This document shows, piece after piece, positions 1-26,190 of a DNA stretch of 64,000 nt. The DNA lies in the IMG/VR virus record IMGVR_UViG_3300026522_000002, positions 36,575 through 100,574 of that record. One strand, written 5' to 3'. The notes under the pieces are model-generated. The model was not told the DNA's origin. It saw only the letters and a list, made by a program, of their open reading frames with translations, and did not search any database. Positions within the stretch are counted from its first letter, which is position 1, and every line of letters starts with the position of its first letter. Origin of the DNA: a virus. Lineage: Duplodnaviria; Caudoviricetes. Position numbers and translations under genes: made by a program.

Positions 1-109
1 TTGCTTTTTTACAATTTATACATGCAAATAGTGCACTATGTGTTTTTTTACATCGATATACATGTTTGCCAACTGTACATAATTGTCCAGGTTTTAGCTG
101 TTTTGCCAT
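1..109 (-). CDS. Small Cys-rich protein, KPGQL family (partial, runs off window start)
   Basis: ATG at 109 on minus strand gives MAKQLKPGQLCTVGKHVYRCKKTHSALFACINCKKA..., a paralog of 3172..3375 and 7956..8243. Not in the ORF track. Confidence 0.75.
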   Translation of the reverse strand, partial: MAKQLKPGQLCTVGKHVYRCKKTHSALFACINCKKA

Positions 110-122
110 ACACAATTGATTT

Positions 123-182
123 GCGGAGATCGAGGATTCGAACCTCTACACTCCTTGTTAATAATAACGTTAATAATCTCCG
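123..182 (-). ncRNA. Minimal tRNA-like element (acceptor stem and T arm only)
   Basis: CGGAGAT...GAGG TTCGAAT CCTC G ATCTCCG: perfect 7-bp acceptor stem and T loop, but only about 29 nt where the D and anticodon arms should be. Confidence 0.65.
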
Positions 183-317
183 TCCTCACTTTCGTAGTTA
201 GCACGTGACCACATCAGGCTGCCAGCTTGGTGTAGTCAGCAATATAAGAATTGCCAGTTATATAGTAATATCCCTTAATGTATTTCCTTCCACATACGAT
301 CAAAACCTGTCAGGCCC
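183..317 (-). ncRNA. ssrA: tmRNA coding piece (two-piece, permuted tmRNA)
   Basis: Starts GGGCCTGACAGGTTTTGAT at 317. Resume context ATAACT-GGC. Tag ORF 255->214 is GNSYIADYTKLAA-TGA. The 3' boundary is approximate. Confidence 0.9.
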
Positions 318-398
318 GATTGTAACCTTTTTCGCTCATGTCGCCGCCAAACTTAGCATTTACCGAATATCGCTATGGTTACATAAAAAGTCGCGTCG

Positions 399-465
399 GG
401 TGGACCTGGGGGTAGTCGAAACCCCGTCTCGCATGCGTATCTCATACAGGATAAAACTTCGATAG
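399..465 (-). ncRNA. ssrA: tmRNA acceptor piece (two-piece, permuted tmRNA)
   Basis: ...CGCATGCGAGACGGGGTTTCGACTACCCCCAGGTCCA. CAGGTCC pairs with GGGCCTG (317-311) including G3.U70, and CGCATGCG pairs with CGTATGTG (P2). The 5' boundary is approximate. Confidence 0.9.
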
Positions 466-499
466 AAACATAATTGATCAGATTATGCTCTAAACAGCT

Positions 500-590
500 C
501 ATAAATGGCTCTCTAAGCCACGATCTCCTTTAGGGTAGTTAGCTACTCCATCCTATTGGAAAAAGTGTCTCAGAGAGCGGTTTTGAAAAG
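500..590. repeat. Bipartite inverted element (copy of a dispersed family)
   Basis: CTCTCT 509-514 and AGAGAG 572-577 with extended imperfect arms and a 57-bp spacer. Same geometry at about 11260, 42740, 44077 and 57469. Confidence 0.5.
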
Positions 591-689
591 CTATTATTCT
601 TGTTGATACAGAGGCCACAGGCAGACTTAAAGTTCGGCAATGGTATGCATCCGCATTTTTTGATAAGAATATGAGTACTTCGTACGCAA

Positions 690-945
690 GGCTAACTTGA
701 TGACTAATACTGGCTCCAGGCTCACATATTCTGGTTAATTGATCAAAATGGACCTATAGTTTTACATCCGTAGGTTCAGATGCTATATACCCCTATTACT
801 GGCTTAAAGCTCTCAATAGATGTCGTTATTTCGACTATAGTTTCCGCTCATACATCTTACACGTCCGACTCAAACGGCCCCCGATGTAACTATTGCAGTA
901 AGGATTACTGGTTCAAGACTCTCAATCCTCGGTATAGTTTCCTTA
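690..945 (-). ncRNA. Putative structured RNA with three related units
   Basis: Three copies of AAACTATA...stem-G(A/T)GAG-N7-CCAGT-stem, with compensatory stems GGATT/AATCC, CTATT/AATAG and AATA/TATT. Confidence 0.6.
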
Positions 946-952
946 CGCTAAA

Positions 953-1570
953 TCAATAGCGCCAAGAATAATCATAGTAGTCCCCGAACTCGGCATCGAG
1001 GTTCTTGCGGTCTGTAGCGTACACTTTGTCGGCTTCAGACATCTTCTTCTTTGTCTCTTCGCCGATCTTCTTCTTCAACTCGTCATATGCGACATAGTTG
1101 ATGATTGGAGGAACGGTTTCACCGTCCTTGAAGGTCTTCTTCTTACCGTCCATCAGTACGATTTCAACGGTCTTCTTGTCGAAGTCGATCGTCTCTTTCT
1201 CGAAGAGAGTGTCCTTCAGTTTGCTTGCATGACGGAACTTGACGTCATTACAGTCAAACACAAAGCCCATCAGATAACGAGCTAAGCGGTCGCGCTGTGT
1301 CAATTCGTCATGCTGAATGTCGTGTACATCTCGCTCGTGGCGGAGCTTGATCAGGCCGGAGATAACTTGATAACGCGCTTCCTGATAACGACGTTTCATT
1401 TCACGCTGGGTATTCTCGTTTTTCTCCTTGTTGATTTCTGCGAGTACGGCTTCACTCATTTCTTGTGAGCCGATAGTACCTTTACCGAGTTTCTCGCGAA
1501 TGTTGTCTACAGTGATCTCCGTAGTTACTGATGTCTCAGCACCTTTTTTGTTTTTGTCTTCCTTTGCCAT
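953..1570 (-). CDS. Hypothetical protein (charged, coiled-coil)
   Basis: 205-aa ORF with an A-rich leader and no internal TAG. Confidence 0.85.
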   Translation of the reverse strand: MAKEDKNKKGAETSVTTEITVDNIREKLGKGTIGSQEMSEAVLAEINKEKNENTQREMKRRYQEARYQVISGLIKLRHERDVHDIQHDELTQRDRLARYLMGFVFDCNDVKFRHASKLKDTLFEKETIDFDKKTVEIVLMDGKKKTFKDGETVPPIINYVAYDELKKKIGEETKKKMSEADKVYATDRKNLDAEFGDYYDYSWRY

Positions 1571-1615
1571 TTTTGATAATTGGTTTTAAAGGATTAATAT
1601 TATGGTTAATTAACT

Positions 1616-1858
1616 CTATACGACTATTACGTTTTTCAATGACCATTCTTTTGGGAATTTCCATTGATTTACGCATAGCCATATTATCGCTTTACGTGCT
1701 GTTTGTGCAGCTTCTTTTGAGGGATAATACTTTGTGGTTATCAATTCTCCTCGATTTCCATTCTTATCTCTCTTATAAAGCTTTACTGGAAACATGTCGT
1801 CATACATAGTCTTCGTAACATTTGTGTTTATACTTGTCCTTTTTGTAAGGGCGTGCAT
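1616..1858 (-). CDS. Hypothetical protein
   Basis: 80-aa ORF in the operon; ends TAG with TAA two codons later. Confidence 0.6.
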   Translation of the reverse strand: MHALTKRTSINTNVTKTMYDDMFPVKLYKRDKNGNRGELITTKYYPSKEAAQTARKAIIWLCVNQWKFPKEWSLKNVIVV

Positions 1859-1914
1859 TTTTGTGTTGAGGCTTAGAATAGCTTTGTGCCTCGAATTTCT
1901 TTGTTTTACACATA

Positions 1915-2358
1915 TTACACAAGATTATTTTCGTACAACGACTTTAACATCACGTATACTGTTCGCTTTAGGCCAAACTTACCACCAAACAGGTGTTCTT
2001 GGTCAGGATATGTACAAATCAATGTGACTGCGTTTGCCCACCATTGTGGATCATCGCCGTCCATTCCTCGTAGTTTTCGAAGAATGTTTACAATGAATGC
2101 ACGTTCTTCCCCACACTGTTTGTATACTTCCATGATTGGCGCAATAGCCTTTCTCAGAGCATTGTCGATAGTTGACACCTCTGGATGTAACAGTAGCGCA
2201 ACATCGTCCGCATGTGGTGTTTCAGACCAACTCCATTGGTGAACAACAATGTTGTCGTTCGAGATTGCTTCGCTGGTAGCTATTTCGGTTACGATGCGAG
2301 CCAACAAGTCATGAGAAATTTCATCATGACCTGGGAGGATGAATGTCACCTGTCTCAT
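1915..2358 (-). CDS. Hypothetical protein
   Basis: 147-aa ORF with ATGA overlap with the upstream gene. Confidence 0.8.
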   Translation of the reverse strand: MRQVTFILPGHDEISHDLLARIVTEIATSEAISNDNIVVHQWSWSETPHADDVALLLHPEVSTIDNALRKAIAPIMEVYKQCGEERAFIVNILRKLRGMDGDDPQWWANAVTLICTYPDQEHLFGGKFGLKRTVYVMLKSLYENNLV

Positions 2359-2807
2359 AGCGCTTCAAATGGTATTATTTTGGCTGAATCGGTGGAATCG
2401 GGGACACTTTGTTGCATAGACGGCAAAGGCGTCTCAGGGAGAGCACTATAGATGCGTTTATTTGCACGATATTCGTATACAATGTCGGAAATGCCGTATG
2501 TCTTTTGTTGCTTCCCGAGCACCGTACAGATATTTGCAATAGTTTGGTCTGGTAGTGTCAATAGAATAGAATCGAATTCCAACTGCCTTCGTCGCTCTTG
2601 CTGGTATGCAATAACGTCTGTTGGACTGTCGAACTCGTACATCTTTTGTAACGCAATAGGCAGATATTCGTCTACCTGTTGTTTAAAAACACTGTCTGGC
2701 GGAGCGATCTCCTCTTTGATTCTTTCACAGGACGTTGTTGTAGCTATTCCTGCAATAAGAAGTCCACCAATTAAGGCGAACATCAAATACTTAATAAACT
2801 TTTTCAT
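2355..2807 (-). CDS. Putative lipoprotein
   Basis: MKK, hydrophobic stretch, then TTSC lipobox-like motif. Confidence 0.75.
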   Translation of the reverse strand: MKKFIKYLMFALIGGLLIAGIATTTSCERIKEEIAPPDSVFKQQVDEYLPIALQKMYEFDSPTDVIAYQQERRRQLEFDSILLTLPDQTIANICTVLGKQQKTYGISDIVYEYRANKRIYSALPETPLPSMQQSVPDSTDSAKIIPFEAL

Positions 2808-2878
2808 TGATTGATAGTTTTTAAGTTGATAATAATGTTAATTAACTCATGTCTGTCTTTCCAGACTGTCAAACGCTT

Positions 2879-2921
2879 GTCCCTAATGTGAGAATCGAAC
2901 TCACTTTAACCATTAAAGGGT
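2879..2921 (-). ncRNA. tRNA remnant / minihelix (T arm plus partial acceptor)
   Basis: CCCTTTAAT...GTGAG TTCGATT CTCAC ATTAGGG, intergenic. Confidence 0.45.
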
Positions 2922-2932
2922 GCGAGAGTGAG

Positions 2933-3175
2933 CTATTGCTCACCCTCGTTTTGTAAGATTTTACATAGTTCCTCATATTGTTGTGGCGAGAGGAACCATG
3001 CTCGTAAGTCTTCGGGTACCATACTATGTTGTACTCCGATAAACACTCGATGTTGACACCATCCGCATACCCAAGAACCATTGATATAATTATCGTCTGG
3101 TCCCATTACGGTCATTTTATTGTCGAAGGTAATTCGAACAAATTCGACAAAACTGATATTATGAATTGTTTTCAT
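2933..3175 (-). CDS. Hypothetical protein (CxxC)
   Basis: 80-aa ORF coupled to the upstream gene. Confidence 0.75.
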   Translation of the reverse strand: MKTIHNISFVEFVRITFDNKMTVMGPDDNYINGSWVCGWCQHRVFIGVQHSMVPEDLRAWFLSPQQYEELCKILQNEGEQ

Positions 3176-3375
3176 ACTTTAACAAAGATTAGACCGTCTA
3201 TATCACAATTCAGTGGATTTTTATTTTCCACATTCTGAAATGATATATTCGGGCACGAGAATGGATTGTTTAGAGCACATCCTGTGCAACTCATAAAGTT
3301 TTCAGGTGTTCTCTTCTTAGCACGATATAAAACCTTGTTAATCGTGCACAATTGACCAGGTTTTAAACGTTTCAT
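3172..3375 (-). CDS. Small Cys-rich protein, KPGQL family
   Basis: MKRLKPGQLCTINKVLYRAKK...CTGC...C...C. Confidence 0.8.
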   Translation of the reverse strand: MKRLKPGQLCTINKVLYRAKKRTPENFMSCTGCALNNPFSCPNISFQNVENKNPLNCDIDGLIFVKV

Positions 3376-3599
3376 GCTCTTGTTTGAAGAAATCTTCCTT
3401 CGATTTTACTGTTGTGTCTTTTGATGTAGCTCTCAATATACATCGCAAGAGAATCTGCAGCCAATGCTGTCATGCCTTTACACAATAGCATTGTATTCTC
3501 CCCAGATTTGAAGAACAGACGTACTTTTTGTTGGCAATCATACTTCAATCTTGGTTTACGATGCAGTTGATTCTGGTAGAAAGATACTGGCTTACTCAT
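3372..3599 (-). CDS. Hypothetical protein
   Basis: Likely start MSKPV at 3599, coupled to both neighbours. Confidence 0.7.
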   Translation of the reverse strand: MSKPVSFYQNQLHRKPRLKYDCQQKVRLFFKSGENTMLLCKGMTALAADSLAMYIESYIKRHNSKIEGRFLQTRA

Positions 3600-4209
3600 A
3601 GTCTTGCAGTTCATCAAATGCTTCGATTGCACGTTCTTTTGTTACTTCCAATTCATTTTCCAAAGATACTACTTTACATACCGTGTATATAAAGGTGCGG
3701 AGCAGTTTCTCAAATTTATCAAGATCCTTCTTCCTTGTACCAGTTGGGAAGGTTTTGGTGATTACAAGCATTGTAACCTTGTTACCTTCATGCATAACAA
3801 GTGCCTCAGTTACATTGAACTTTGCATCGTGTAGACCTGCAAGTACTCTTGTAGCTTGTCCGTGGTTGAAAAGTATTTTGCACTGCCATCCAATTGACTC
3901 TTCATCAATGCTATGAATGCTGACACCTAGCTCGTCATCTGTTATTTCTTGCAGCTTTCGCCTTTTTTCTGGTCCACAGACGTCGACAATGGTATAACTT
4001 ACATCATATGGCCTTGCTATTGCTTTGATCTGTTCTTCTGTTTTTTCTGAATCAATGACTACAGAGCGTTTTACGTGGGAGCCATTATTCTCCTTTGGAG
4101 GATTTTGTTCATCTATCAGATCTACTGTCTCTTTTAAGCAGAGGTTGGTCATTTCCTTTACAACTTTTGCTAAATGTAGTTTGTTGGAGGATTGTAATTT
4201 AACTTTCAT
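3592..4209 (-). CDS. Protein with N-terminal ribosomal L7/L12 C-terminal-domain-like region
   Basis: NKLHLAKVVKEMTNLCLKETVDLID resembles the bL12 pattern [24 protein letters not shown]. Confidence 0.6.
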   Translation of the reverse strand: MKVKLQSSNKLHLAKVVKEMTNLCLKETVDLIDEQNPPKENNGSHVKRSVVIDSEKTEEQIKAIARPYDVSYTIVDVCGPEKRRKLQEITDDELGVSIHSIDEESIGWQCKILFNHGQATRVLAGLHDAKFNVTEALVMHEGNKVTMLVITKTFPTGTRKKDLDKFEKLLRTFIYTVCKVVSLENELEVTKERAIEAFDELQDYE

Positions 4210-4270
4210 TTGTTTGTAATTTTGATAATTATCTACTTGCACAGGACTTTGCCACCTATGCTTGGTTTGC

Positions 4271-4510
4271 TTATTTTACGCGTTTTGGATAATTGAGTGG
4301 ACCACATATTGTAAGACAATCGAATTTCTCACGTCCGCTTCGTTCTGAATCTGCGATACATTTTGTTCGATTGTGTTTGATGTATTGTGCATTTGCTTTT
4401 TTGCAATCATCACACGTCCATCCATTTTTCCCAATAGAAGTTACAATGTATTTTTGGTTACGATACTTAAACTCTGCTCCAACTGGAAGTTCTTCTTTAA
4501 TCATTTTCAT
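4271..4510 (-). CDS. Small Cys-rich protein (distant KPGQL-like)
   Basis: LPVGAEFKY...CDDCKKAN...C...C...C. Confidence 0.7.
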   Translation of the reverse strand: MKMIKEELPVGAEFKYRNQKYIVTSIGKNGWTCDDCKKANAQYIKHNRTKCIADSERSGREKFDCLTICGPLNYPKRVK

Positions 4511-4576
4511 GTTTGTTTAAATGATAAAATAATAACCATAACGCGAAAAACACTATTCCAAGAAATATTTCATCTT

Positions 4577-4843
4577 TCATAGGCTTTCTCTTGCTTTGAT
4601 GTACTCATCGTACGCAGGTCCAGGATCATATGCATCAATCCAATTAAAGTTGGATTCAAGAGAGTCAAGCAACGTTTCTGATGCTTGGTAGTACTGTTGG
4701 TATTTGTGTAGTTCCTTTTTGGTAATACACGTTACTACAATCATTACAGCTGTAATTGAACACAGCATTGAGACGATAAAGATCATTCCGCCAATTGCAT
4801 GGAACAATCCTTTAATTTGGAAGATTAAGTCAGACTTTTTCAT
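4577..4843 (-). CDS. Membrane protein
   Basis: Long hydrophobic segment; likely start MKKSDL at 4843. Confidence 0.7.
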   Translation of the reverse strand: MKKSDLIFQIKGLFHAIGGMIFIVSMLCSITAVMIVVTCITKKELHKYQQYYQASETLLDSLESNFNWIDAYDPGPAYDEYIKARESL

Positions 4844-5034
4844 ATCTCGTTCGCTTTTACAAAAGACATTACTTTCTCCCATTCATTGTCTCTTGCAATG
4901 TGGATAGTTTCGCCATCAACCAAGTCAATTTCTGTGTTTTCTTCGTCTACATCCACAATTGTTTCCAGATTTACAATGTATTCTTCTATTTCATTGTAAT
5001 CATTTTCATGATGAACTTTTAAGAATGTTGCCAT
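4840..5034 (-). CDS. Hypothetical acidic protein
   Basis: 64-aa ORF with ATGA coupling. Confidence 0.75.
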   Translation of the reverse strand: MATFLKVHHENDYNEIEEYIVNLETIVDVDEENTEIDLVDGETIHIARDNEWEKVMSFVKANEI

Positions 5035-5038
5035 AATA

Positions 5039-5275
5039 CTACTTGATTTGTTGTTCTACAAGTTGTTCTGGAATTGGAATAAACACAGGACTGTCCTTGA
5101 ATTTAAGGTTTTTGTACCAACTTGATGGTAATGCCATCATTTCACAGGTCGCATTACATCTAAGTTCACCTAATTGTGTATTATAATCTTTACACTTTTT
5201 AGGCTTTGATGTGTAGGCATATAGGTGACCATTTTCGTCTCTGGCTATCCAGACACCTTTTTTAAATCCTCCCAT
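5039..5275 (-). CDS. Hypothetical phage protein (WIARD motif)
   Basis: WIARDENGHLYAYTSKP; ends at a TAG 4 nt before the next ATG. Confidence 0.75.
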   Translation of the reverse strand: MGGFKKGVWIARDENGHLYAYTSKPKKCKDYNTQLGELRCNATCEMMALPSSWYKNLKFKDSPVFIPIPEQLVEQQIK

Positions 5276-5321
5276 ATTGATTATGTTTTAGAGGTTAATT
5301 ATTTTCATGAGACTTCACCGC

Positions 5322-5486
5322 TCATGATCGGTATACATTTGCGTAAAACAAATATGCCATTATTAAGTTGTCTATTGCATATACCCATGAAGGCATCTGT
5401 TCTTTTGTAATAAAAGCTCCAATTGCAAAAGCGACATTGATAATTATGGCAAGAGTCGTAAACATTTTAATGATTTCTTTTGTCAT
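5322..5486 (-). CDS. Small two-TM membrane protein
   Basis: Likely start MTKEII; two hydrophobic helices. Confidence 0.6.
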   Translation of the reverse strand: MTKEIIKMFTTLAIIINVAFAIGAFITKEQMPSWVYAIDNLIMAYLFYANVYRS

Positions 5487-5812
5487 ATTTGATAGATTTT
5501 TTTGAATTCTAACCATCGTTTTTCTGGGTCTCTTTCCAATATTCTTTGAAATGTATAATTGTAATCTTCATATACTGTTTCATACGAATCATACTTCCAA
5601 AAAATAAGTTTATTTGCGAGGTATTCTACTGAAACTCCAGTCTTCCACATTCTATGGATAGTACACGCCTTTGACAATGATTTGTCGTTTATTAAATTGT
5701 AGGCAATTATTTTTTGAGGAGTCAGTTTATACCTTTTTAAGACTTTTGTACGATTTAAGAATTCAATTAAACCATCTCGTAATTGACAATAATGGTTGTA
5801 TGTAATTGTCAT
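5483..5812 (-). CDS. Hypothetical protein
   Basis: 109-aa ORF with AATCAATATG leader. Confidence 0.75.
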   Translation of the reverse strand: MTITYNHYCQLRDGLIEFLNRTKVLKRYKLTPQKIIAYNLINDKSLSKACTIHRMWKTGVSVEYLANKLIFWKYDSYETVYEDYNYTFQRILERDPEKRWLEFKKIYQI

Positions 5813-5839
5813 ATTGATTATGATTTGATTACTTGTTTT

Positions 5840-5996
5840 GTGATAGGTGATGGATTCGAACCACCATTTTCTTCAATACACCACTGTGTATGAGAGGACG
5901 TTCTTTTGGTGAATAAAGAGTTCTTTTATGAAAATCATTTAGAGTTCTTGAGAAAAGCCAAAAGTTTCACCGTTTGCCAATTGAACTAACCTATCA
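5840..5996 (-). ncRNA. Expanded tRNA-like RNA (about 157 nt)
   Basis: TGATAGG/CCTATCA acceptor, GGTGG TTCGAAT CCATC T arm, D stem GTTC...GAAC interrupted by a roughly 65-nt GGTGAA...TTCACC insert, and no canonical anticodon loop. Confidence 0.65.
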
Positions 5997-6000
5997 TTTG

Positions 6001-6073
6001 TTGCCCGTATGGGAGTTGAACCCATGTTTCCCAGATCAGATACTGGGCGCTCTCCCCGTTGAGCCATCGGGCA
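6001..6073 (-). tRNA. tRNA-Gln(CTG)-like with 8-nt anticodon loop
   Basis: TGCCCGA TG GCTC..GAGC G CCCAG TATCTGAT CTGGG AAAC ATGGG TTCAACT CCCAT ACGGGCA A. Confidence 0.7.
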
Positions 6074-6074
6074 T

Positions 6075-6215
6075 ACACTACACATTCAAAGTACATAGAC
6101 AACCACTTTTGTTTATAGTCTTTTTAGGTTATGCAGATTAACCTTAATTGGCTCTTTACAACCGGATCCCTTGTTGTGTAGAGATGCACTATTTGTTCTG
6201 CAGCATATGTAGTGT
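6075..6215 (-). ncRNA. Putative multibranch RNA between tRNA-like genes
   Basis: Closing stem ACACTACAT/GTGTAGTGT enclosing several hairpins (for example AGGTTA/TAACCT and ACAAC/GTTGT). Confidence 0.4.
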
Positions 6216-6218
6216 TTT

Positions 6219-6290
6219 GTGGGGTATGCAGAATCGAACTGCGTAGGCCATACCGAAGGATTTTTGTTTAAACCTACTCCAATTACCCCA
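6219..6290 (-). ncRNA. Degenerate tRNA-like RNA
   Basis: TGGGGTA/TACCCCA acceptor and GCAG TTCGATT CTGC T arm; D and anticodon region non-canonical. Confidence 0.6.
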
Positions 6291-6296
6291 TATTAG

Positions 6297-6366
6297 TGGA
6301 CCCTTGAGACTTGAACTCAAAACTTACGTCAATGACGCACGTGTTACCAATTATACACCAGAGTCC
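6297..6366 (-). ncRNA. Degenerate tRNA-like RNA
   Basis: GGACTCT/AGGGTCC acceptor, D arm, TGAG TTCAAGT CTCA T arm; anticodon arm collapsed (GCGTC ATT GACGT). Confidence 0.6.
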
Positions 6367-6458
6367 TTATAAAAACCTCATTATCTTCACAGACCATGAG
6401 GCTAAGAATAACTTAATGTCTTTTATACATCAACATGATTAATATAGTATTAATTGAG

Positions 6459-6527
6459 TACCGCTGTACCCAGACACTCTTGTGTTTCGCCTGAATTTCA
6501 CAGGCTCATCGGTGGGTTTTAGCGGTA
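6459..6527 (-). ncRNA. Type I hammerhead ribozyme (U4C core variant)
   Basis: TACCGCT aaa ACCCA CCGATGA GCCTG tgaaatt CAGGC GAAA CAC aaga GTG TC^TGGGT ac AGCGGTA. All three stems pair and the cleavage triplet is GUC. Confidence 0.9.
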
Positions 6528-6589
6528 AATACTACTATTCTCACGAACCGTAGCATCCAAATGAAAGAATGAAAGAAAAAGAAATATTT

Positions 6590-7135
6590 TTAACGTTGTA
6601 GTAATGGAGAGTCACTTAATGGAATTTTATCTAATGGGATTTCATCTCCAATGATTATTTTATTAGAGACGTATTCACCGTCTTCATTTAAGTAATATTC
6701 CGCTCCAGCAGGTATGAAACACTGCACTATTACATTATGATCATAAATCGACAGGTCCATAACGTTATATGCTACACCTGCTTCATTAGGGTGAAATACA
6801 TACTTATAACCACCTACGATTACCAATTCTTTCGTTAATGGTAGTCTTTTACGATAAACCGTTCCTTTTTGTAAGGAATGGAATCCGCAATAGATACGCC
6901 AGTCGCTTTGATAATCTGTACCAAAACATTCAATACATAAATGTTCGCCATGTAAGCCATCTGCAACAAGAATGTTGTGACGCATGTTGTAAAAGATTTT
7001 ATCTCTCTGCCATGGTGATGTTAAAGGCTCACTTTGGTTTACAAAATGTTTTTTTACGTAGAATTTCCACACTTCAATCTTTCTTTTTGCGATGCGCGGT
7101 CTTGTACGCCATTTTTGATTAGTAATCCAACACAT
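6590..7135 (-). CDS. Hypothetical phage protein
   Basis: 181 aa; MCW...GFHS...CFIPAGAEYYLNEDGEYVS pattern seen in Bacteroidota phage proteins. Confidence 0.85.
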   Translation of the reverse strand: MCWITNQKWRTRPRIAKRKIEVWKFYVKKHFVNQSEPLTSPWQRDKIFYNMRHNILVADGLHGEHLCIECFGTDYQSDWRIYCGFHSLQKGTVYRKRLPLTKELVIVGGYKYVFHPNEAGVAYNVMDLSIYDHNVIVQCFIPAGAEYYLNEDGEYVSNKIIIGDEIPLDKIPLSDSPLLQR

Positions 7136-7203
7136 TTTGATAACGTATTTTGAAACTATCAGAAAGAGGATACGCCATTGATTGGCTCAAGGAACGTAAT
7201 ATT

Positions 7204-7401
7204 CTATAAAGAAATGTTATTCTCTTTGAGAATACTGCATACAATTTGACCATATATCTCATCAGTTGTGGCGTTGATTCGACGTATGGCTGCAAATGAA
7301 TCATTCAATCTATCTGGAGAAAGATAAGATGGAACTTCACCTGCTTCTTCTGCTCGCTGATATTCAGCAAACATCCGACTTGCTTCTTTTGATAGTTTCA
7401 T
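7204..7401 (-). CDS. Hypothetical protein
   Basis: 65 aa to TAG; would extend to TGA at 7159 if TAG were read through. Confidence 0.7.
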   Translation of the reverse strand: MKLSKEASRMFAEYQRAEEAGEVPSYLSPDRLNDSFAAIRRINATTDEIYGQIVCSILKENNISL

Positions 7402-7626
7402 GTTGTTGATAGATGTTAATTAACTCTAAATGTTGCCGTGACCTTTCTTATTCCGAGCTGTCAACCCATTTGAGGCTGTGGTTCACCCCAGGTTTATCTC
7501 AACCTGATTTAGTATTCGATTCCCCAAATAATGTAATTGAAGAATGGCGTTAGGACTTTGCAAGCCATCACCAATATGATGGCACCTGCGATTAGCGTGA
7601 TTAATGCTAACCACAGGTTAATTTTG

Positions 7627-7971
7627 TCATTTGTGGTCAATGTTGGTTTCATAAGCCTTTTGGTTAATCATTTTCCCAATTTCTGGGAGATATCGATTAT
7701 ATTCTCGCCCTGTCTTTTGAGACGTAACCTTAATATAGGCTTTCCCTGTTTTAGAGAGATAGATGGGATAAGTTTCACCTTTCTTCGTTTTGTACGAGTA
7801 TTCGGTTTTTGTTCCCGCGTTAGACTGTCTGGCCTTGCTATTACTGACATTGTCAGTGAAGGTCTTACCAACTAAGACATATTTAGCCGTGTCTTTAGCG
7901 GCCTCCTGTGCAAAACTTGGAATACACAGGGTGAGCATCATGATGATGCTGAAGATCAATTTTTTACACAT
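7627..7971 (-). CDS. Putative secreted/periplasmic protein
   Basis: Signal peptide (…PSFA^QE); YPIYLSKTGKAYI...SQKTGREY. Confidence 0.8.
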   Translation of the reverse strand: MCKKLIFSIIMMLTLCIPSFAQEAAKDTAKYVLVGKTFTDNVSNSKARQSNAGTKTEYSYKTKKGETYPIYLSKTGKAYIKVTSQKTGREYNRYLPEIGKMINQKAYETNIDHK

Positions 7972-8243
7972 AGTGGATTTATTCTTATGAATTGTGGAAA
8001 TGAATCTTCTCTTATTAATTTACGACACGCTTCTGCATCGTGTTGTATTTTTCCTGGAAGTCCATATTCTGTTGGATTTTCTCTACTTTGGATACATAAA
8101 TATGGATGATCTGGATCTTTTATAAGATGAAATAATATACATCCTATACATCCACCATTTTCTCCTCCGCTTGGAATACCTTTTTTTATTCTATAAGTAT
8201 ATTTCCCAAATGTAACTAATTGACCTGGTTTGTATTTAGTCAT
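7956..8243 (-). CDS. Small Cys-rich protein, KPGQL family
   Basis: MTKYKPGQLVTFGKYTYRIKK...CIGC...C...C. Confidence 0.8.
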   Translation of the reverse strand: MTKYKPGQLVTFGKYTYRIKKGIPSGGENGGCIGCILFHLIKDPDHPYLCIQSRENPTEYGLPGKIQHDAEACRKLIREDSFPQFIRINPLCVKN

Positions 8244-8390
8244 ATGTTGTTTGAATTGATTTCAATGTGAATTGTCAAAATCCTTCGGTCAGGGGACTAC
8301 GCATCACCCCCGATGTAGCATACGCATTGCTTTTGCATAATATACCCTATGCCTGGATTATTTTGTTCCGTGAAACAAACTAAATAAAAT

Positions 8391-8428
8391 GGCACAACGT
8401 GCCCACCATTGAGGTGGGACACGTGTGC
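8391..8428 (-). terminator. Terminator-like hairpin
   Basis: GCAC-ACGTG-CCCACC ... GGTGGG-CACGT-GTGC hairpin followed by a T-rich tract on the minus strand, just after the 8441..9115 gene. Confidence 0.6.
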
Positions 8429-8440
8429 AAATTTACGAGA

Positions 8441-9115
8441 TTAGCTCTGACCTGCTGCTGCGAGGATAGCACGTGCTTTTGCAATCTCATCCTCTGGATT
8501 GACAGTTGGAGCTTCTGCTGGTGCCTCTGGAGCTGCTTGTGCTTCAACGCCTGGTGTAGGCGGATTGTACTGTTTGTAGTTGCGTGAAATCACATCGCGC
8601 ATAACATCTTCTGGCTCTCGCACCCAAACCCATTGTTGTGCAGGGTCTTGGATTTCTGCGTCGAAGCGCTTTTTGATGTACAGTGTGATTGTGTTCACAG
8701 GTACAATCTCTCCTTGGTCAGACTTGACGAATTCACCCTTCTTTGCCACGAGTTGACCATTGACGATGCGGTCTGATTTATGAACTCGCGCATAATACCC
8801 TGGCAGTGGAACTTTGACAGAGAAGATGTGGTCAATGTGCGTGAGGTCAAATATTTCACCTTTGGTTATGGCCTCTTTGAGTTTTGCTTCATCAATGGTG
8901 TACACCTTTTGCTCTGTAGACGTTCTTGTCTGGTCAAGCTTTGTGTAAGGCATCCACAATTTGACTACATCTTCTGATGTGTTGTAGTACACTGGTAGAG
9001 GGTCTGGGTTTGCGTATGGGTCTGCATCGAAGAACAGATTTGCAAACAGCCAACGGTAGTCACCTACTTTGTTGGTTCTCTCGTAAATTGTTACATTTTT
9101 CAATAAATAGCGCAT
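8441..9115 (-). CDS. Hypothetical early protein
   Basis: 224-aa ORF with a Pro/Ala-rich C-terminal linker. Confidence 0.85.
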   Translation of the reverse strand: MRYLLKNVTIYERTNKVGDYRWLFANLFFDADPYANPDPLPVYYNTSEDVVKLWMPYTKLDQTRTSTEQKVYTIDEAKLKEAITKGEIFDLTHIDHIFSVKVPLPGYYARVHKSDRIVNGQLVAKKGEFVKSDQGEIVPVNTITLYIKKRFDAEIQDPAQQWVWVREPEDVMRDVISRNYKQYNPPTPGVEAQAAPEAPAEAPTVNPEDEIAKARAILAAAGQS

Positions 9116-9371
9116 AGTTGTAATGTATTTAGTTTGTTAAACAATGTTTCAAATGCTGATAGGCTATATCTTAAATGCAACTGCTCGGTTTGCATCATGA
9201 GCTGGATGGAAATGTGGGGAATAGCTTGGACTCACCCCACTATGGACACTGTTCGCACTGCCTGTCCTTTGGACGGTTCATTTGTCTTGTGCTCGCTCCT
9301 GCCTCACCGACAACGTCAGGAACAATAATATAAAGAGATGAATAAATATAATCATCTCAACGCCTAACAGA

Positions 9372-9466
9372 AGAAACATTTGCACGTCAAAAACACCCTT
9401 AAATGATATCAAACGTCTGACGAGAAACATTTGCACGTCAAAGAGAATCTATTTTGATATCAAACG
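9372..9466 (-). promoter_or_regulatory. Tandem 51-bp bipartite motif (candidate early promoter/operator)
   Basis: AGAAACATTTGCACGTCAAA-N12-TGATATCAAACG occurs twice; a partial third copy is at 9862-9879. Confidence 0.55.
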
Positions 9467-9492
9467 ATTAAGAAGAGCTAAGAGAGCATGTT

Positions 9493-9609
9493 CTAAGACA
9501 TGCCCTCTTTTGCCATTTCTCTAAACACTCTTCGCATTCTTTCGTCTGCGTCTTCAAGAGCATCAATGAACTCATTTTGCTCTTTTGTAAGGTTTTCTTC
9601 GTGTATCAT
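9493..9609 (-). CDS. 38-aa hypothetical early protein
   Basis: MIHEENLTKEQNEFIDALEDADERMRRVFREMAKEGMS; AATCAATATG leader; TAG stop sits in a hairpin loop. Confidence 0.6.
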   Translation of the reverse strand: MIHEENLTKEQNEFIDALEDADERMRRVFREMAKEGMS

Positions 9610-9899
9610 ATTGATTATGTATTAATTGCAACAATTACTAGAAGCAATATAAAAAGAAATAGGAAGCCTACCTGCAGATAGGCCTCCCTGAGTATATCGC
9701 CACGTCTTCTTGAGGGTTTCATCCAGACACATGAATTGGCTGCTAGAGGTCCTATACGAATAGCTATTAAATATGCCAGCTCTGTGATGTTCTCAAGTTG
9801 TCCGTTGGGTCGATAGCATCAAGTGGTGTCAAAGACATATGATGCAACATTTACCAGAAGTAACATATGCACGTCAAAAGGAACAAAAGAAGCACAATC

Positions 9900-10109
9900 C
9901 TAAGACTGTGCTCCTTCTGGTGAATCAGCTACAAAGACTCTTTCCTGCATGAAGGAGACAATTGCTCCTGGATGCTTGGTGAGCCAATCTTTGTAGGCTG
10001 CAAAGACCTGTTCAATGGTGTCATAGAGTGGCGAATGATGCCACTTCTGCCAATTCTGCTTGTCGCGAATGGCTAAGCGGTGTTTGTAGACGTACATATA
10101 AAACAGCAA
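9900..10109 (-). CDS. Hypothetical early protein
   Basis: About 69 aa, start uncertain; TAG stop sits in the loop of a terminator hairpin. Confidence 0.65.
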   Translation of the reverse strand: MLFYMYVYKHRLAIRDKQNWQKWHHSPLYDTIEQVFAAYKDWLTKHPGAIVSFMQERVFVADSPEGAQS

Positions 10110-10179
10110 TGATGTGACATTGCAACAACTAAAAGGAGCAACTTTTGCAAGTCATAAGGCTGTACTGTGACAGCCAGGC

Positions 10180-10347
10180 TTATGCCTGGTCTGCCACAAA
10201 TACTGCAAAGTGTGTCTCAGCCTCTACAAACTCCTGCTGTCTGTTGAGGATGGCTGCATACTGACGAGCGTCTTCGAGCGTATCGAAGAACTCTTCGATG
10301 GAAGGTGATGCGTACTTCCACATCTTGATGACTACATACTGTCTCAT
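10180..10347 (-). CDS. 55-aa hypothetical early protein
   Basis: MRQYVVIKMWKYASPSIEEFFDTLEDARQYAAILN...; below the ORF-track cutoff. Confidence 0.7.
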   Translation of the reverse strand: MRQYVVIKMWKYASPSIEEFFDTLEDARQYAAILNRQQEFVEAETHFAVFVADQA

Positions 10348-10739
10348 GAGATAATTGGCAGTTGATATGACAACTGCGACAGATAGAAGAAGAATGCTTT
10401 GCAGGTCAAAGGCTTGGCGGGGGTATCTTCCCTCGCGACGATTGGGTGGGGGTCGGTTTTAGGGAGTTTCTCGTTTTTGTATATACAATACAGTTTCTCG
10501 TTTTTACGCACATAATACAACTTTTCAGAAAAAATAAAAAATTTTTATTTTCACCGTTTGCTTGCAAATGTTTGTGTTTTACGCAGTAAAATGTAAAAAT
10601 TTTAGGGACCCTCATTTCCGAGAATCCCTATTAGAAGTAGCGCATATTACATCTACGGCTACCATTATACACGAAACTAAGAGGAAAAGGCCCATTATTA
10701 GATCTTCCCCTCTTAGCTCTGAAATATTCTACATTGTTT

Positions 10740-10955
10740 TTATTTTTTATCCAATTCTTTGTATAAATCTATAAATCGTTGTCTTGCTTTTTCGTCTTTT
10801 ATAGGTTCAAATACATAATCCCAGTCTCTAGAACCGCTTTTATATCGTTCATACAATGCTCTTCCTTCATCCTCAGGGATTATTCTATTACCCTCATATG
10901 GGGATGGTTGTACGAGTTCTAGCATTACTAGGTTTCTTATACTTTCATTGTCCAT
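10740..10955 (-). CDS. Hypothetical protein
   Basis: 71-aa ORF. Confidence 0.65.
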   Translation of the reverse strand: MDNESIRNLVMLELVQPSPYEGNRIIPEDEGRALYERYKSGSRDWDYVFEPIKDEKARQRFIDLYKELDKK

Positions 10956-11092
10956 AAAGTTATAAAATTGTTGTACAAATTACGTGATTTCCTATGACGC
11001 GGAATTTACATCCTTTGCTAATCATTTCAACGGTGTTTTTTAAGAATTCCAATTGGAAGAATTTACACTCTTTAAATAGATATCCGCTCATG

Positions 11093-11518
11093 TTAAGCTG
11101 CCTCCTTTACTTCTGGTTTAACTTCTTCAAACTGTACATAAGTGTCTGGTTCATAGTTAGTTTCACGTTCTACAAGTTGTTCAGAATCAGCCTCTTTTAG
11201 CGCCTTTTCCACCTCTTCTAGGGTTGTCTTTTCTGCCATTGTAGAACCTTCAGGATTAGCCTCTTTTTGGAGCTTAGAAAGCTTGTTTATGAGGTAACTT
11301 GGGTTCTTTCTATACTGCTCAGAGAGCACAGAAAACACGTTATTTAGGCTTTGCGGATCCTTCACATTACCATTTTCATCCTTGTCTTTTGCAAGTTTGT
11401 CTACTAGATCTTCTAACTCGTTAATTGTGTATTTTTTAAGCTTTCCATCATCGCCTACATGGCGTATGAGATTGCCTTCCTTATCGTAAATATTAGCGTA
11501 TTTGTTAATTTTTCCCAT
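11093..11518 (-). CDS. Hypothetical protein
   Basis: 141-aa ORF ending KEAA. Confidence 0.8.
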   Translation of the reverse strand: MGKINKYANIYDKEGNLIRHVGDDGKLKKYTINELEDLVDKLAKDKDENGNVKDPQSLNNVFSVLSEQYRKNPSYLINKLSKLQKEANPEGSTMAEKTTLEEVEKALKEADSEQLVERETNYEPDTYVQFEEVKPEVKEAA

Positions 11519-11596
11519 AATTTACGTGTTTATGAAATAAACCTTCTATTGTGTATTTGTGCCTGTTTTAGACGCTCTAAAGCGTTCATATAGGCC

Positions 11597-12109
11597 TCAT
11601 TTTTTAGGAGATTTATGAGTGTATGACACTCTTGGGTCTGTATTTGTACCATATTCTGCGTGTGCTACGTATCTTGAGCACTGTGTTCGTTTGGGGTCTC
11701 CTTTTTCATCGATTTCTAAGTGAGTATAAACTTGATTATTTATCCACTTTTCGTACTATTTTATTGCTTCATTCTTCTCAAATTTGCTGCTATAGTAGTG
11801 GATGCAATTTAACATCTAATATGCATTAATAACACCTAAAGCAGCTAAATTACAGATATCTTTTACGTAAGATATAGCTCCTTCCTTACCAAATTTATCC
11901 TTTATTTGGTTATACTCTTTGTAGGACTATACGTAATAAGGGTTTTCTTCGTCATAGAAGGGCTATAGGTCTACTATATATGCGGAGTTTATAGGACTAC
12001 CATAGATAAAGTAGTACTTACAATTATCTGTTACAGTCTTACTTTCTTCTTTAAGACTTAAGTAATCAGCATAGTATAATATAGCATTTAGTTCTATTAT
12101 ATCTAACAT
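11597..12109 (-). CDS. Hypothetical protein (TAG-recoded, 170 aa)
   Basis: MLDIIELNAILYYADYLSLK...; open to TGA with 4 in-frame TAGs; absent from the ORF track. Confidence 0.8.
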
Positions 12110-12221
12110 GTTGTTCTACTAATTCTGAATAGCTATAGAGTAGCTATATATAATATAATATATATTTTCTTTGTCTTACTTTCTTTTATGTCAGTTTTTG
12201 AGCTGCTTTAAAGTACTAATA

Positions 12222-12280
12222 TAACGTAAAATATACTTTTTTTGTTGCACTTGCAACCCTTTTTATATCTTTTTACGTTA
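12222..12280. promoter_or_regulatory. Divergent pair of putative late promoters GCAAC-N17/18-CGTTA
   Basis: TAACG(12222)...GTTGC(12248) and GCAAC(12253)...CGTTA(12280) lie back to back exactly at the strand switch. Confidence 0.65.
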
Positions 12281-12313
12281 AGGGGGTGTTGTAATTAAAA
12301 ATTTATACACAAA

Positions 12314-12724
12314 ATGAGCAAGACTTTAAAGGTAATTACCCCGTTCTTTACACTTGGTATCGGGGATATATTAGAGCTCTCGGATGACGGGAACTTCTAC
12401 GAATTCAAACAAGAAGAGAAGTTCGGACAGAATACAGTCGACGGCGGTGATTATGAATCATTGTTTAGCACATCGCTGAGTATTTCTGTAGATCATGCGA
12501 AGGAGCTTATTAAAGAGGGCTACCTTTCAGAGGAAGTTGTTGCACAAGACAAGTTTGTCAACGTTTTTGATGAAATCGATGCTCTCTTGAAACAATATAA
12601 TCACGACCTTGACGAAGTTAATCAAGACAAAGCAGAAGTTCCAGCTTGTCTTAAAGTTGAGAAAACAACTGTATTGAGTAACCTCATTAAGGTGTTAACA
12701 CACTTAAAGAATCTCAAGAAATAA
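12314..12724 (+). CDS. Hypothetical protein
   Basis: 136-aa ORF, first gene of the rightward operon. Confidence 0.85.
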   Translation: MSKTLKVITPFFTLGIGDILELSDDGNFYEFKQEEKFGQNTVDGGDYESLFSTSLSISVDHAKELIKEGYLSEEVVAQDKFVNVFDEIDALLKQYNHDLDEVNQDKAEVPACLKVEKTTVLSNLIKVLTHLKNLKK

Positions 12725-12725
12725 T

Positions 12726-13148
12726 ATGGGAGAAGAAAAGATTATTGATCAATCGAAGTTGGCAAACGATGTTGCGAGCAAGATTCCTTACGAATTTACA
12801 GACTCATTCCTTGTTAAACTTCTGGATCCGATCAAAGTGAAGAAAGAGTTTCACGTTCCAGTTTCAAAAGATGAAACCCCAAAGAAAGATGAACACGGAA
12901 TTGCAGCGGTTGATTTCGATGAAACTAAGACAGAAACCAAAGAGGTAGACTCAGACTACAGAAAAGGTGTAGTTTTGAAGGTCCCTTATAGTTACACAGC
13001 ACAACTCTCAGACGAGAAGATTACATATGTTCCCAAGATTAACGTTGGAGATATAGTACTGTTTAGGGACGCTGCCGCACGATTCTTCGATCTTCTTAAA
13101 GATAGCAAACTTGTTAGACAATACGACATTATAGCAATCGAGAAGTGA
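12726..13148 (+). CDS. GroES-like co-chaperonin
   Basis: LVK...KGVVLKV...INVGDIVLF...LVRQYDIIAI matches the cpn10 beta-strand pattern. Confidence 0.7.
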   Translation: MGEEKIIDQSKLANDVASKIPYEFTDSFLVKLLDPIKVKKEFHVPVSKDETPKKDEHGIAAVDFDETKTETKEVDSDYRKGVVLKVPYSYTAQLSDEKITYVPKINVGDIVLFRDAAARFFDLLKDSKLVRQYDIIAIEK

Positions 13149-13363
13149 AAGATATCGAATATGTGATAAAAGAGGTTTCTAAGCGAACAGGCGCTGATAT
13201 AGAACTTGTAGATCAGATATGCAAACATGTGTTCAGATTTACAATAGATGTCATGAAAGACGAAAATGACTATCATGAAATACTGTTCAGTAAGTTGTTC
13301 AAATTCAAACTTAAAGGTAGATTTAAAGAAGATAAAACTAAACAATACAGTCCAAAGTTATGA
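13145..13363 (+). CDS. HU/IHF-like small DNA-binding protein
   Basis: IKEVSKRTG...V..I...F.F.I..M...I.F..LFKF fits an HU-like N-terminal fold. Confidence 0.55.
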   Translation: MKDIEYVIKEVSKRTGADIELVDQICKHVFRFTIDVMKDENDYHEILFSKLFKFKLKGRFKEDKTKQYSPKL

Positions 13364-13728
13364 ACAAATACATGATTAGAGAAGGTCTTCGCGGTTTATA
13401 CTATCTTGGCGAAGATGGAGAAATGGATGTGCAAGATTATACTCCTAGTCGTATAAACTACATGTACGTTGCAGATCATGACGGCAAGCTTACATACATT
13501 AAGCGAGACAATAGTAAAACCGAATTCGACGTTAAGAAGGGAGACCTTGTTTTGGAGTTCTATTCTGGATACGACTTTCCAAATCAGTGTATCGTCGTAC
13601 AAAGCGATCTCTGGAGAAACAACCTTGCGGCATACCAACTGGCGTGTTTAAAGCGAGCACAAAACAGTGTAACAAAAGAATGTTGTGATCAATGCGAGGC
13701 AAGTTCTACTTGTAATGGTGCAGCATGA
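13360..13728 (+). CDS. Hypothetical protein
   Basis: 122 aa, Cys-rich C-terminus ending AA. Confidence 0.8.
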   Translation: MNKYMIREGLRGLYYLGEDGEMDVQDYTPSRINYMYVADHDGKLTYIKRDNSKTEFDVKKGDLVLEFYSGYDFPNQCIVVQSDLWRNNLAAYQLACLKRAQNSVTKECCDQCEASSTCNGAA

Positions 13729-13774
13729 GATGAACGTGAGTATACTTGGGAAGTAATAATAAATAATTAAAACT

Positions 13775-14095
13775 ATGACAAAGAAGACTAAGAAGCCAGC
13801 ATTTAAGCCTGCGTTTGTAGCAGATTTTACGTGGTGCGAAACTGCTGAGGATGCATACGAAGAGTTGCTTACCGCAAAGTATGAGGCAAAGGTTCCTCTT
13901 ACTAATTATGAAGTAGGTAAGTTCTGTGAATACAAAATCGTTCAAGCATTGGATCAGTTTGTAGACGATCTGTTTGACGGTCACAATGCAGTCGTAATTG
14001 ACGATGATAAAGTTAAAGCATTTGATGCGTTTAAGGTAACAGTCAAGCAGCCTTGGTATAAGAGGCTTTGGAACTGGATTACGCGTAAGAAGTAA
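13775..14095 (+). CDS. Hypothetical protein
   Basis: 106 aa with amphipathic PWYKRLWNWITRKK tail. Confidence 0.8.
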   Translation: MTKKTKKPAFKPAFVADFTWCETAEDAYEELLTAKYEAKVPLTNYEVGKFCEYKIVQALDQFVDDLFDGHNAVVIDDDKVKAFDAFKVTVKQPWYKRLWNWITRKK

Positions 14096-14214
14096 TAAGT
14101 AACTGTTTTACAGTTCAGTAAAAACTGTGATTTTACGTTCATAATCTATAGGGTGGAAACGCGCAGATGTCTGCCTTTGGGTTCGAAAGAACTAAATGTG
14201 TGACCGCCCTATAT

Positions 14215-14303
14215 GCGAGGGAAGCTGAAACTTGGAGACTCAGCAGCTACAGCCGATAATCTGTGGGAGTAGAAGTTTGTTGGTTCGAATCCAACCCCTC
14301 GCG
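14215..14303 (+). tRNA. Atypical tRNA (GAT/Ile-like anticodon, 8-nt loop)
   Basis: GCGAGGG/CCCTCGC acceptor, GCTG/CAGC D stem, TACAG CCGATAAT CTGTG, GTTGG TTCGAAT CCAAC. Confidence 0.6.
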
Positions 14304-14432
14304 CTATCACCCTACGATGAAATAGGCGTAGGCTCGTGTCGAAAGACACTTACAGTCGGAGGTCAGCCTTGAAACTCTATCCCGACTATAACAAAGAGGG
14401 CCCAATACAGCTTATACGTGCTGTGAACGTAT

Positions 14433-14507
14433 TGCTCCATGGTGTAGCGGTAGCACGGGAGGCTCTAACCCTCCAGGTCCGGGTTCGACTCGATGGTGGG
14501 GCGACCA
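14433..14507 (+). tRNA. Amber suppressor tRNA (anticodon CTA), Gln-type body
   Basis: TGCTCCA TG GTGT AGCGGTA GCAC G GGAGG CT-CTA-AC CCTCC AGGT CCGGG TTCGACT CGATGG TGGGGCG A CCA. Confidence 0.92.
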
Positions 14508-14529
14508 ATAACTTAAACATAAGTATAAA

Positions 14530-19697: not shown

Positions 19698-19698
19698 C

Positions 19699-21762: not shown

Positions 21763-21764
21763 CG

Positions 21765-25754: not shown

Positions 25755-25760
25755 TATATT

Positions 25761-26189: not shown

Positions 26190-26190
26190 C

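Follow-up and report, generated by a model that had tools for sequence, protein, structure and literature searches.

Gut phages are well known to recode stop codons, while the way in which an infected cell handles two codes at once is a wider question. Here, we analyzed a 64,000-nucleotide (nt) stretch of DNA (hereafter "the window"), representing bases 36575-100574 of the complete, 100,574-bp phage record IMGVR_UViG_3300026522_000002. Between positions 123 and 14507, the window contains an amber suppressor tRNA, a transfer-messenger RNA (tmRNA), a hammerhead ribozyme fold and six tRNA-shaped RNAs, along with a gene for a protein that has a domain resembling the C-terminal domain (CTD) of ribosomal protein bL12. 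A first-pass annotation had tentatively joined these parts into a single, integrated system driven by recoding. The catalog of parts is confirmed, and the parts are members or variants of known element types. The integrated-system reading is unsupported, because each part shows its own distribution among relatives. We consider it likely that the segment instead comprises a leftward, standard-code gene block and the head of a rightward block, which hold independent translation accessories that were gained and lost separately. Its description as one genome segment was also too strong, as the parts are spread over 14 kb and two divergent strands, with about 30 small open reading frames (ORFs) between them.

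The distributions were compiled from 28 near-complete IMG/VR genomes of close relatives, 26 reference crAss-like genomes (12 of which were read whole) and 18 Boorivirinae-like IMG/VR genomes. A tmRNA is present in 35/36 recoded and 11/23 standard-code Suoliviridae and, as a one-piece molecule, in 3/14 other standard-code crAss-like phages. Matches to the bL12 CTD family (PF00542) in small early ORFs follow a different pattern, occurring in 14/23 standard-code Suoliviridae, 8/35 recoded Suoliviridae and 0/14 other crAss-like phages. The hammerhead is found in seven of 72 genomes, all from the recoded, Oafivirinae-like clade, a quarter of which carries it. The array of tRNA-shaped RNAs could be recognized in just two congeneric near relatives, L253 and L254 (ENA; 87-90% identical). 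ARAGORN matches to tRNA(CTA) are confined to recoded genomes, and the suppressor tRNA is the sole part that tracks recoding.

A TAG-recoded crAss-like phage with a suppressor tRNA at the head of its rightward block

The major capsid protein (MCP; 28595-30121) shares 82-89% identity with its counterparts in Dulem virus 42, cr272_1, cr124_1, cr7_1 and a Bohxovirus. Taxonomy was looked up for cr272_1, cr124_1 and the Bohxovirus, all of which belong to the Suoliviridae, subfamily Oafivirinae. With TAG readthrough, long ORFs cover 0.94 rather than 0.61 of the rightward late region, while TGA readthrough has no effect, and the late ORFs contain 81 in-frame TAGs in 10,274 codons (7.9 per 1000). In-frame TAGs are limited to rightward genes from about 16.2 kb onward, the first lying at 16629 (+). 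The leftward ORFs at 953-11521 are intact with the standard code, five of the 26 ending in TAG, and probably represent the early block. This gut phage is a TAG-recoded, Oafivirinae-like member of the Suoliviridae and of the ordinary "code 15" crAss-like type, for which TAG-to-Gln recoding with a phage suppressor tRNA has been described (Yutin et al. 2021, PMC7886860; Borges et al., preprint 10.1101/2021.08.26.457843). A megablast search of positions 1-15000 against reference phages gave no match, and neither did a blastn search with the array of tRNA-shaped RNAs.

The amber suppressor tRNA(CUA), with an encoded CCA end, lies at 14433-14507 (+) and was detected by ARAGORN (anticodon CTA) and by RF00005 (35.9 bits; cut-off 29). 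Its T stem deviates from a regular 5-bp helix by a G52.G62 mismatch and a bulged A. The same irregular T stem is present in three relatives that differ elsewhere in sequence (L215, L219 and L221) and therefore does not represent a sequencing error. The first-pass annotation was right about this tRNA's identity, while its description as a late gene does not obviously hold, given that the gene heads the rightward block, 1.7 kb ahead of the first TAG-containing gene. As in the code 15 crAss-like phages on record (PMC7886860; 10.1101/2021.08.26.457843), a CUA tRNA is combined with early genes in the standard code and with late genes rich in TAG. Unlike in those phages, a mismatch and a bulge interrupt the T stem, a feature shared by a subclade, and the tRNA stands at the head of the rightward block. 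Separately, the reference genome cr115_1 (NC_055898.1) is TAG-recoded (coverage 0.44 to 0.85), yet ARAGORN detected no CUA tRNA in it.

Just downstream of the suppressor tRNA, a split dUTPase gene occupies 14530-15956 (+). Exon 1 (14530-14802) covers positions 3-71 and exon 2 (15714-15956) positions 72-128 of PF00692, with an HNH endonuclease ORF (14832-15710) and a group I intron core (15429-15670; RF00028, 64.7 bits) located between them.

Architecture of a permuted, two-piece tmRNA

The phage's own ribosome-rescue RNA, as the first-pass annotation had proposed, is a permuted (two-piece) tmRNA at 123-491 (-), recognized both by ARAGORN (class tmRNA*) and by Rfam model RF04321 (51.4 bits; cut-off 47). 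In the ARAGORN layout, the 3' domain (gene positions 55-93) precedes the 5' domain (175-201), which corresponds to the permuted order. Accordingly, the acceptor piece, bearing the T arm and the 3' acceptor strand, comes first (399-460 (-); the RF04321 alignment starts at 460). It is followed by a segment that separates the two pieces and that appears as an insertion in the RF04321 alignment (318-398 (-), delimited by the ARAGORN layout). The coding piece (183-317 (-); ARAGORN, Rfam and direct reading) starts with the 5' acceptor strand GGGCCUG and continues into the tag ORF (214-255). GGGCCUG pairs with CAGGUCC to form an acceptor stem that contains the alanine identity pair, G3.U70. The tag, GNSYIADYTKLAA, ends in LAA and is followed by a UGA stop codon.

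About 30 nt past the tag stop lies an armless, mini tRNA-like element that consists of an acceptor stem and a T arm (123-182 (-); folding and T-arm/acceptor scan). A T arm or an entire tRNA was found 70-90 nt beyond the tag stop in all eight Suoliviridae tmRNA loci that were read, in recoded and standard-code phages alike. In addition, reading by eye revealed a further T-arm-like stretch within the intervening segment of cr50_1 and cr10_1.

Phage tmRNAs are on record (PMC7162821); our literature searches found no paper discussing tmRNAs of crAss-like phages. Two-piece tmRNAs of the RF04321 class are annotated as "transfer-messenger RNA, SsrA" in the RefSeq records of cr272_1 (NC_055903.1) and cr273_1 (NC_055904.1). 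The window tmRNA resembles this class in its succession of acceptor piece, intervening segment and coding piece, in G3.U70 and in a tag that ends in LAA, and it holds the same position relative to the early genes as in cr272_1. Unlike the class at large, it is phage-borne, with no phage SmpB found in the genome (a domain search of which yielded neither an SmpB nor a release-factor domain), and it is accompanied by the family-wide tRNA-like minihelix at a set distance past the coding piece.

Two further features were noted around this locus. Upstream of the tmRNA, at 690-960 (-), three related units of about 70 nt were identified by eye, each of which starts with AAACTATA and contains ..GAG..CCAGTAAT..; they are situated in a block that is 87% identical in L253. 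In the near relatives L253 (8755-9318) and L255 (6712-7275), the leftward block includes, about 1 kb downstream of the tmRNA, a gene for a 187-residue, extracytoplasmic function (ECF)-type sigma-70 factor (PF04542, PF08281, PF04545), and the equivalent place in the present genome falls just before the window start.

The tmRNA is shared by recoded and standard-code Suoliviridae

A tmRNA is present in 27 of the 28 close relatives. All 27 of these relatives with a scorable MCP locus are TAG-recoded, and the 28th, G001, has a CTA tRNA. The six recoded reference genomes all carry a tmRNA, in the case of cr115_1 by ARAGORN alone (42525-42886, permuted). Homologous permuted tmRNAs also occur in cr50_1 (60.3 bits) and cr10_1 (49.6 bits), which use the standard code genome-wide and lack a CTA tRNA. 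Their tags, GNNFVTDYTAIGA and GNNFVTDYTQLAVA, respectively, form one family, GN..DYT.., with those of the recoded Suoliviridae. Moreover, nine of 17 standard-code Boorivirinae-like IMG/VR genomes contain a permuted tmRNA, and members of this group with 99-100% identical capsid proteins differ in its presence. Outside the Suoliviridae, one-piece tmRNAs are found in the standard-code phages cr106_1, FpV4 and phi14:2. The tag-ORF stop codons proved uninformative, because all of them are TAA or TGA under both codes.

These observations bear on the first-pass proposal that the tmRNA and tRNA mimics could buffer stalled or run-through ribosomes at the UAG switch, here considered in a wider form that includes the bL12-like protein and retention by selection in recoded phages. 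In favor of such a coupling, the tmRNA is more frequent among recoded genomes (35/36 versus 11/23). Nearly all apparent losses fall on standard-code phages, although the recoded G002 is also without a match, and production of the suppressor would lead to readthrough of the five TAG-ending leftward ORFs. However, on the MCP tree, recoding changes state only twice and the tmRNA 12 times. With only two independent contrasts (sign-test p 0.5-1), the enrichment is untestable. The tmRNAs of standard-code relatives are homologous and intact, so that the tmRNA was not born for recoding. In addition, the bL12-like domain is commoner without recoding, and only a subclade carries the hammerhead and the array. 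Finally, ribosomes that reach UAG before a suppressor is available terminate through RF1 and would not stall. Taken together, we regard a recoding-driven buffering system as unlikely.

The tmRNA therefore predates recoding and would function without it. Two points count against the overall reading of separately inherited accessories. First, retention is clearly higher among recoded than among standard-code Suoliviridae, such that a functional benefit in combination with recoding is possible. Second, Infernal with strict filters missed the cr115_1 tmRNA, which renders absences called by Infernal alone soft, some of them possibly being false negatives. In the present sample, the tmRNA is kept in all recoded Suoliviridae except one and apparently disappeared several times among standard-code lineages. 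Reading UAG as sense might thus have locked in a phage tmRNA that is ancestral and otherwise dispensable, with the extra trans-translation becoming near-indispensable, although we hold this to be doubtful.

Among the genomes consulted, PV686213.1 (Bohxovirus sp. 'endotrachealis'; L114) stood out, as coverage of its capsid region rises from 0.31 to 0.56 with TAG readthrough and to 0.59 with TAA readthrough, and its deposited annotation is broken into tiny ORFs. This suggests a wrongly annotated code or sequence errors.

A U4C hammerhead heads an array of tRNA-shaped RNAs

The self-cleaving ribozyme claimed in the first-pass annotation corresponds to a type I hammerhead fold at 6468-6517 (-), for which cleavage is predicted. 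The fold, comprising stems I-III and a GUC triplet, is the minimum-free-energy structure of this stretch (z = -3.5), and the predicted cut falls after GUC, between 6473 and 6472. The core contains the expected GAAA and reads CCGAUGA (U4C) rather than CUGAUGA. The Rfam scores lie below the cut-offs (RF00008, 14.7 bits versus 48.5; RF03152, 16.2 bits versus 56.3). The element is identical in L253 and L254. Canonical CUGAUGA hammerheads are present in cr272_1, where the element lies in the same leftward early gene block, and in six IMG/VR relatives, and their stems I and II differ in sequence yet stay paired, indicating covariation. Because relatives carry canonical homologs with covarying stems, we take the window hammerhead to be real. 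It shares three stems, GAAA, the GUC triplet and an open stem I with phage hammerheads (RF00163, RF00008, RF03152 RAGATH-1) and differs from them in its CCGAUGA core and in scores far under the Rfam cut-offs.

A tRNA or tRNA-shaped element follows within about 250 nt of the hammerhead in three of nine relatives' copies (cr272_1, G025 and G005), the G005 element being a canonical tRNA-Gln(UUG). A tRNA-Met lies about 680 nt past the hammerhead of G028. A hammerhead-then-tRNA arrangement, presumably a processing module, recurs in relatives; our literature searches found no dedicated paper on such modules in phages. Just upstream of the hammerhead, at about 6525-6552 (-), there is a motif of 26-28 nt that recurs three times in the early region of L225 (G001) with 92-96% identity (about 330-354, 6424-6449 and 6574-6601) and that may be a promoter or a processing signal.

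The first-pass annotation had counted at least six non-canonical tRNA-like RNAs, and RF00005, ARAGORN and folding indeed reveal six RNAs that each have an acceptor stem and a T arm and lack a canonical anticodon arm. None of them forms the cloverleaf with a D arm and a 7-nt anticodon loop that is expected of a canonical elongator tRNA. They depart from it by an 8-nt loop, a 3-nt loop, the lack of a D arm, the lack of both D and anticodon arms, or large inserts. A stringent search that required both a T arm and a 7/7 acceptor stem retrieved eight elements genome-wide, compared to a mean of 0.5 and a maximum of two in block shuffles.

Four of these RNAs lie downstream of the hammerhead on the same strand. 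The first one encountered, 6296-6367 (-), was recognized by folding and has a 3-nt loop on a lengthened anticodon stem; it is absent from L253 and is therefore dispensable. The next, 6219-6290 (-), lacks a D arm (ARAGORN, folding and scan) and is 100% identical in L253, though its flanks diverge. A spacer RNA of 131 nt (6085-6215 (-)) follows amid the tRNA-shaped elements and is about 95% conserved in L253; its fold is no better than that of shuffled sequences (z = -0.9). Beyond it, a tRNA with an 8-nt anticodon loop, UAUCUGAU, occupies 6000-6073 (-) (RF00005, 45.2 bits). In this loop, U-A-U33-CUG-A-U, U33 precedes a CUG anticodon and there is one additional base on the 5' side. The last RNA, 5841-5995 (-), carries a 53-nt insert in its D loop and a 35-nt insert in its anticodon loop (RF00005, 37.1 bits; scan). 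It is about 96% identical in L253, and the fold of 5846-5995 (-) is no better than that of shuffles. A further tRNA-shaped RNA, at 14215-14304 (+), is situated 130 nt upstream of the suppressor tRNA (fold z = -2.3; scan). T-arm/acceptor elements are found up to 600 nt upstream of the suppressor tRNA in seven of 14 relatives, one of them being a canonical tRNA-Met.

The slot of the 8-nt-loop tRNA is occupied in L253 by a canonical tRNA-Ile(UAU), to which it is nearest (66% identity). We rejected the idea that it is a glutamine tRNA akin to the UUG tRNA behind the G005 hammerhead, as it is only 42-56% identical to Gln tRNAs. An exact search of IMG/VR with its anticodon arm gave 17 matches, about the number estimated to arise by chance and none inside a tRNA.

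The simplest reading is that the tRNA-shaped RNAs would serve as RNase P/RNase Z recognition modules that punctuate a non-coding transcript. It is in line with the element behind the tag ORF in all eight tmRNA loci, with the elements that trail the hammerhead in relatives and with the different tRNA in the cargo slot of L253. The arrangement resembles the tRNA cluster of phage T4, in which the tRNA genes of a large phage are accompanied by small stable RNAs (species 1 and 2) that are freed by tRNA processing. Likewise, tRNA or tRNA-shaped units in the window alternate with a spacer RNA on one strand. Unlike the T4 cluster, the window array is headed by a hammerhead and most of its units are without a usable anticodon arm. 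Two caveats apply: the punctuating role is deduced from position, shape and conservation, and the ribozyme, given its U4C core, is possibly inactive.

Alternatively, the U4C hammerhead and most of the unusual tRNA-shaped RNAs could be decaying remnants, of a ribozyme and of tRNA genes, respectively, that have no function. In line with decay, one unit is missing from L253, the array found no sequence match in 20 IMG/VR relatives, U4 of the hammerhead core is conserved in all relatives' copies and altered in the window, and neither 5846-5995 nor the spacer folds better than shuffles. However, both 6219-6290 and the hammerhead match L253 at 100% identity, compared to 87-90% for the surrounding region as a whole, the acceptor stems and T arms are perfect, and the tRNA-like element past the tmRNA holds its position family-wide. 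We therefore judge decay to be improbable.

A second alternative rests on the departures in the anticodon arm. Phage tRNAs can evade anticodon nucleases via changes in the loop, and the tRNA-shaped RNAs and the 8-nt-loop tRNA might be decoys or escape variants that counter host tRNA-targeting defenses, such as anticodon nucleases. All six RNAs have a non-canonical anticodon arm, and in several of them the D arm deviates as well, while keeping the acceptor stem and T arm, and the cargo tRNA slot turns over fast. Yet several elements have no anticodon arm at all, the element behind the tmRNA is fixed in position, and no anticodon-nuclease target or host defense was identified, so that we give this idea very little credence. 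Punctuation of a non-coding transcript is the reading that we consider most likely for the tRNA-shaped RNAs.

Outside the window, two further RNAs of tRNA-like shape (134 and 89 nt) were noted at genome positions 19493-19626 and 26328-26416, adjoining a canonical tRNA-Asn and a canonical tRNA-Met. Canonical tRNA-Thr and tRNA-Leu(UAA) and possibly a tRNA-Tyr lie on the same leftward strand at genome positions 19648-35592, likewise ahead of the window.

An early protein with a bL12-CTD-like domain

An ORF at 3592-4242 (-) encodes 216 residues. An alignment of the family, comprising 120 homologs, sets the start at M12, yielding a 205-residue early protein (3592-4209 (-)) with an N-terminal bL12-CTD-like domain, a ferredoxin-like domain and a long C-terminal helix. 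The window ORF alone reaches 20.2 bits with PF00542, under the cut-off of 25.9. PF00542 matches are found in 24 of 41 aligned family members (best 1e-8), and a family profile run against the PDB matched Thermotoga L7/L12 (E = 0.0055) via the LKEAKDL helix. In an AlphaFold model (pLDDT 87.7), residues 12-87 adopt a beta-alpha-alpha-beta-alpha-beta fold. VIA-align superimposed this N-terminal domain on the Mycobacterium tuberculosis L7/L12 CTD with a Z score of 5.3 over 67 residues (22% identity). The bL12-like protein listed in the first-pass annotation is thus borne out by family matches and by the predicted fold. ClpS, which has the same fold, is tied with the L7/L12 CTD (Z 5.7); we rejected it as the identity of the domain, as sequence support exists only for PF00542. 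A whole-chain Foldseek search returned only spurious two-domain matches, and the N-terminal match surfaced only with VIA-align.

The bL12-like domain begins at the first residues of the protein. The N-terminal dimerization/uL10-binding domain of bL12 and the hinge are absent, and the rest of the chain consists of the ferredoxin-like domain and a 45-residue helix. Domains of bL12 have been found within larger phage proteins and were acquired many times (Mizuno et al. 2019, PMC6375957). Like those proteins, the window protein contains the stalk CTD fold with an LKE..DL helix-5 motif inside a larger phage protein. It differs from them in lacking the bL12 N-terminal domain and hinge, in being fused to ferredoxin-like and long-helix portions and in belonging to a domain family of Suoliviridae early genes that is not represented in PHROGs, where no family for this protein was found. 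A tblastn search with the 216-residue protein detected no close homolog in 12 panel genomes or 20 IMG/VR relatives, and our literature search found no paper on bL12 domains in crAss-like phages.

With matches in 14/23 standard-code as opposed to 8/35 recoded Suoliviridae, the domain does not track recoding; judged by the refuting condition of the first-pass annotation, which named equal frequency in non-recoded relatives for the tmRNA and the mimics, this part of the proposal does not hold. The strongest stalk-domain match among the 72 crAss-like genomes was observed in G019 (an IMG/VR relative of L053), in which a 252-residue early ORF (G019:C1:10728-11195) carries two tandem PF00542 domains (54.3 and 22 bits).

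Discussion

Based on these results, we suggest how independently acquired accessories might act in one infected cell, with expression timing, cleavage, charging and all protein interactions deduced from sequences, folds, homology and distributions. The suppressor tRNA(CUA), encoded ahead of all TAG-containing genes, would decode their roughly eight in-frame TAGs per 1000 codons. The tmRNA is presumably ancestral to the family and independent of recoding in its action. Owing to G3.U70, it would carry alanine, relying on host SmpB, alanyl-tRNA synthetase (AlaRS) and EF-Tu. It would rescue ribosomes that stall on broken or non-stop mRNAs in the course of infection, and the products would receive the alanine-ended tag described above. 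The hammerhead, at the head of a non-coding transcript, would detach this transcript from the upstream mRNA and thereby free its 5' end. Recognition of the tRNA-shaped elements by RNase P and RNase Z might then release the tmRNA coding piece, with its 3' end set by the adjoining element, as well as the spacer RNA and a swappable cargo tRNA flanked by such elements. The bL12-CTD fusion would display the factor-binding face of the ribosomal stalk without the N-terminal domain that anchors it to the ribosome, and most likely binds translational GTPases off the ribosome.

Across the Suoliviridae, a permuted tmRNA with a conserved tRNA-like end-marker is near-universal in recoded members and present in about half of the sampled standard-code members. 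The early genes of the family, in addition, carry family-wide, free bL12-CTD domains that may capture translational GTPases off the ribosome. A possible lock-in of the tmRNA by recoding would, if true, be among the points of interest. We think that a family-wide permuted tmRNA with tRNA-like punctuation, hammerhead-tRNA modules and free stalk-CTD proteins that are widespread in early genes merit attention.

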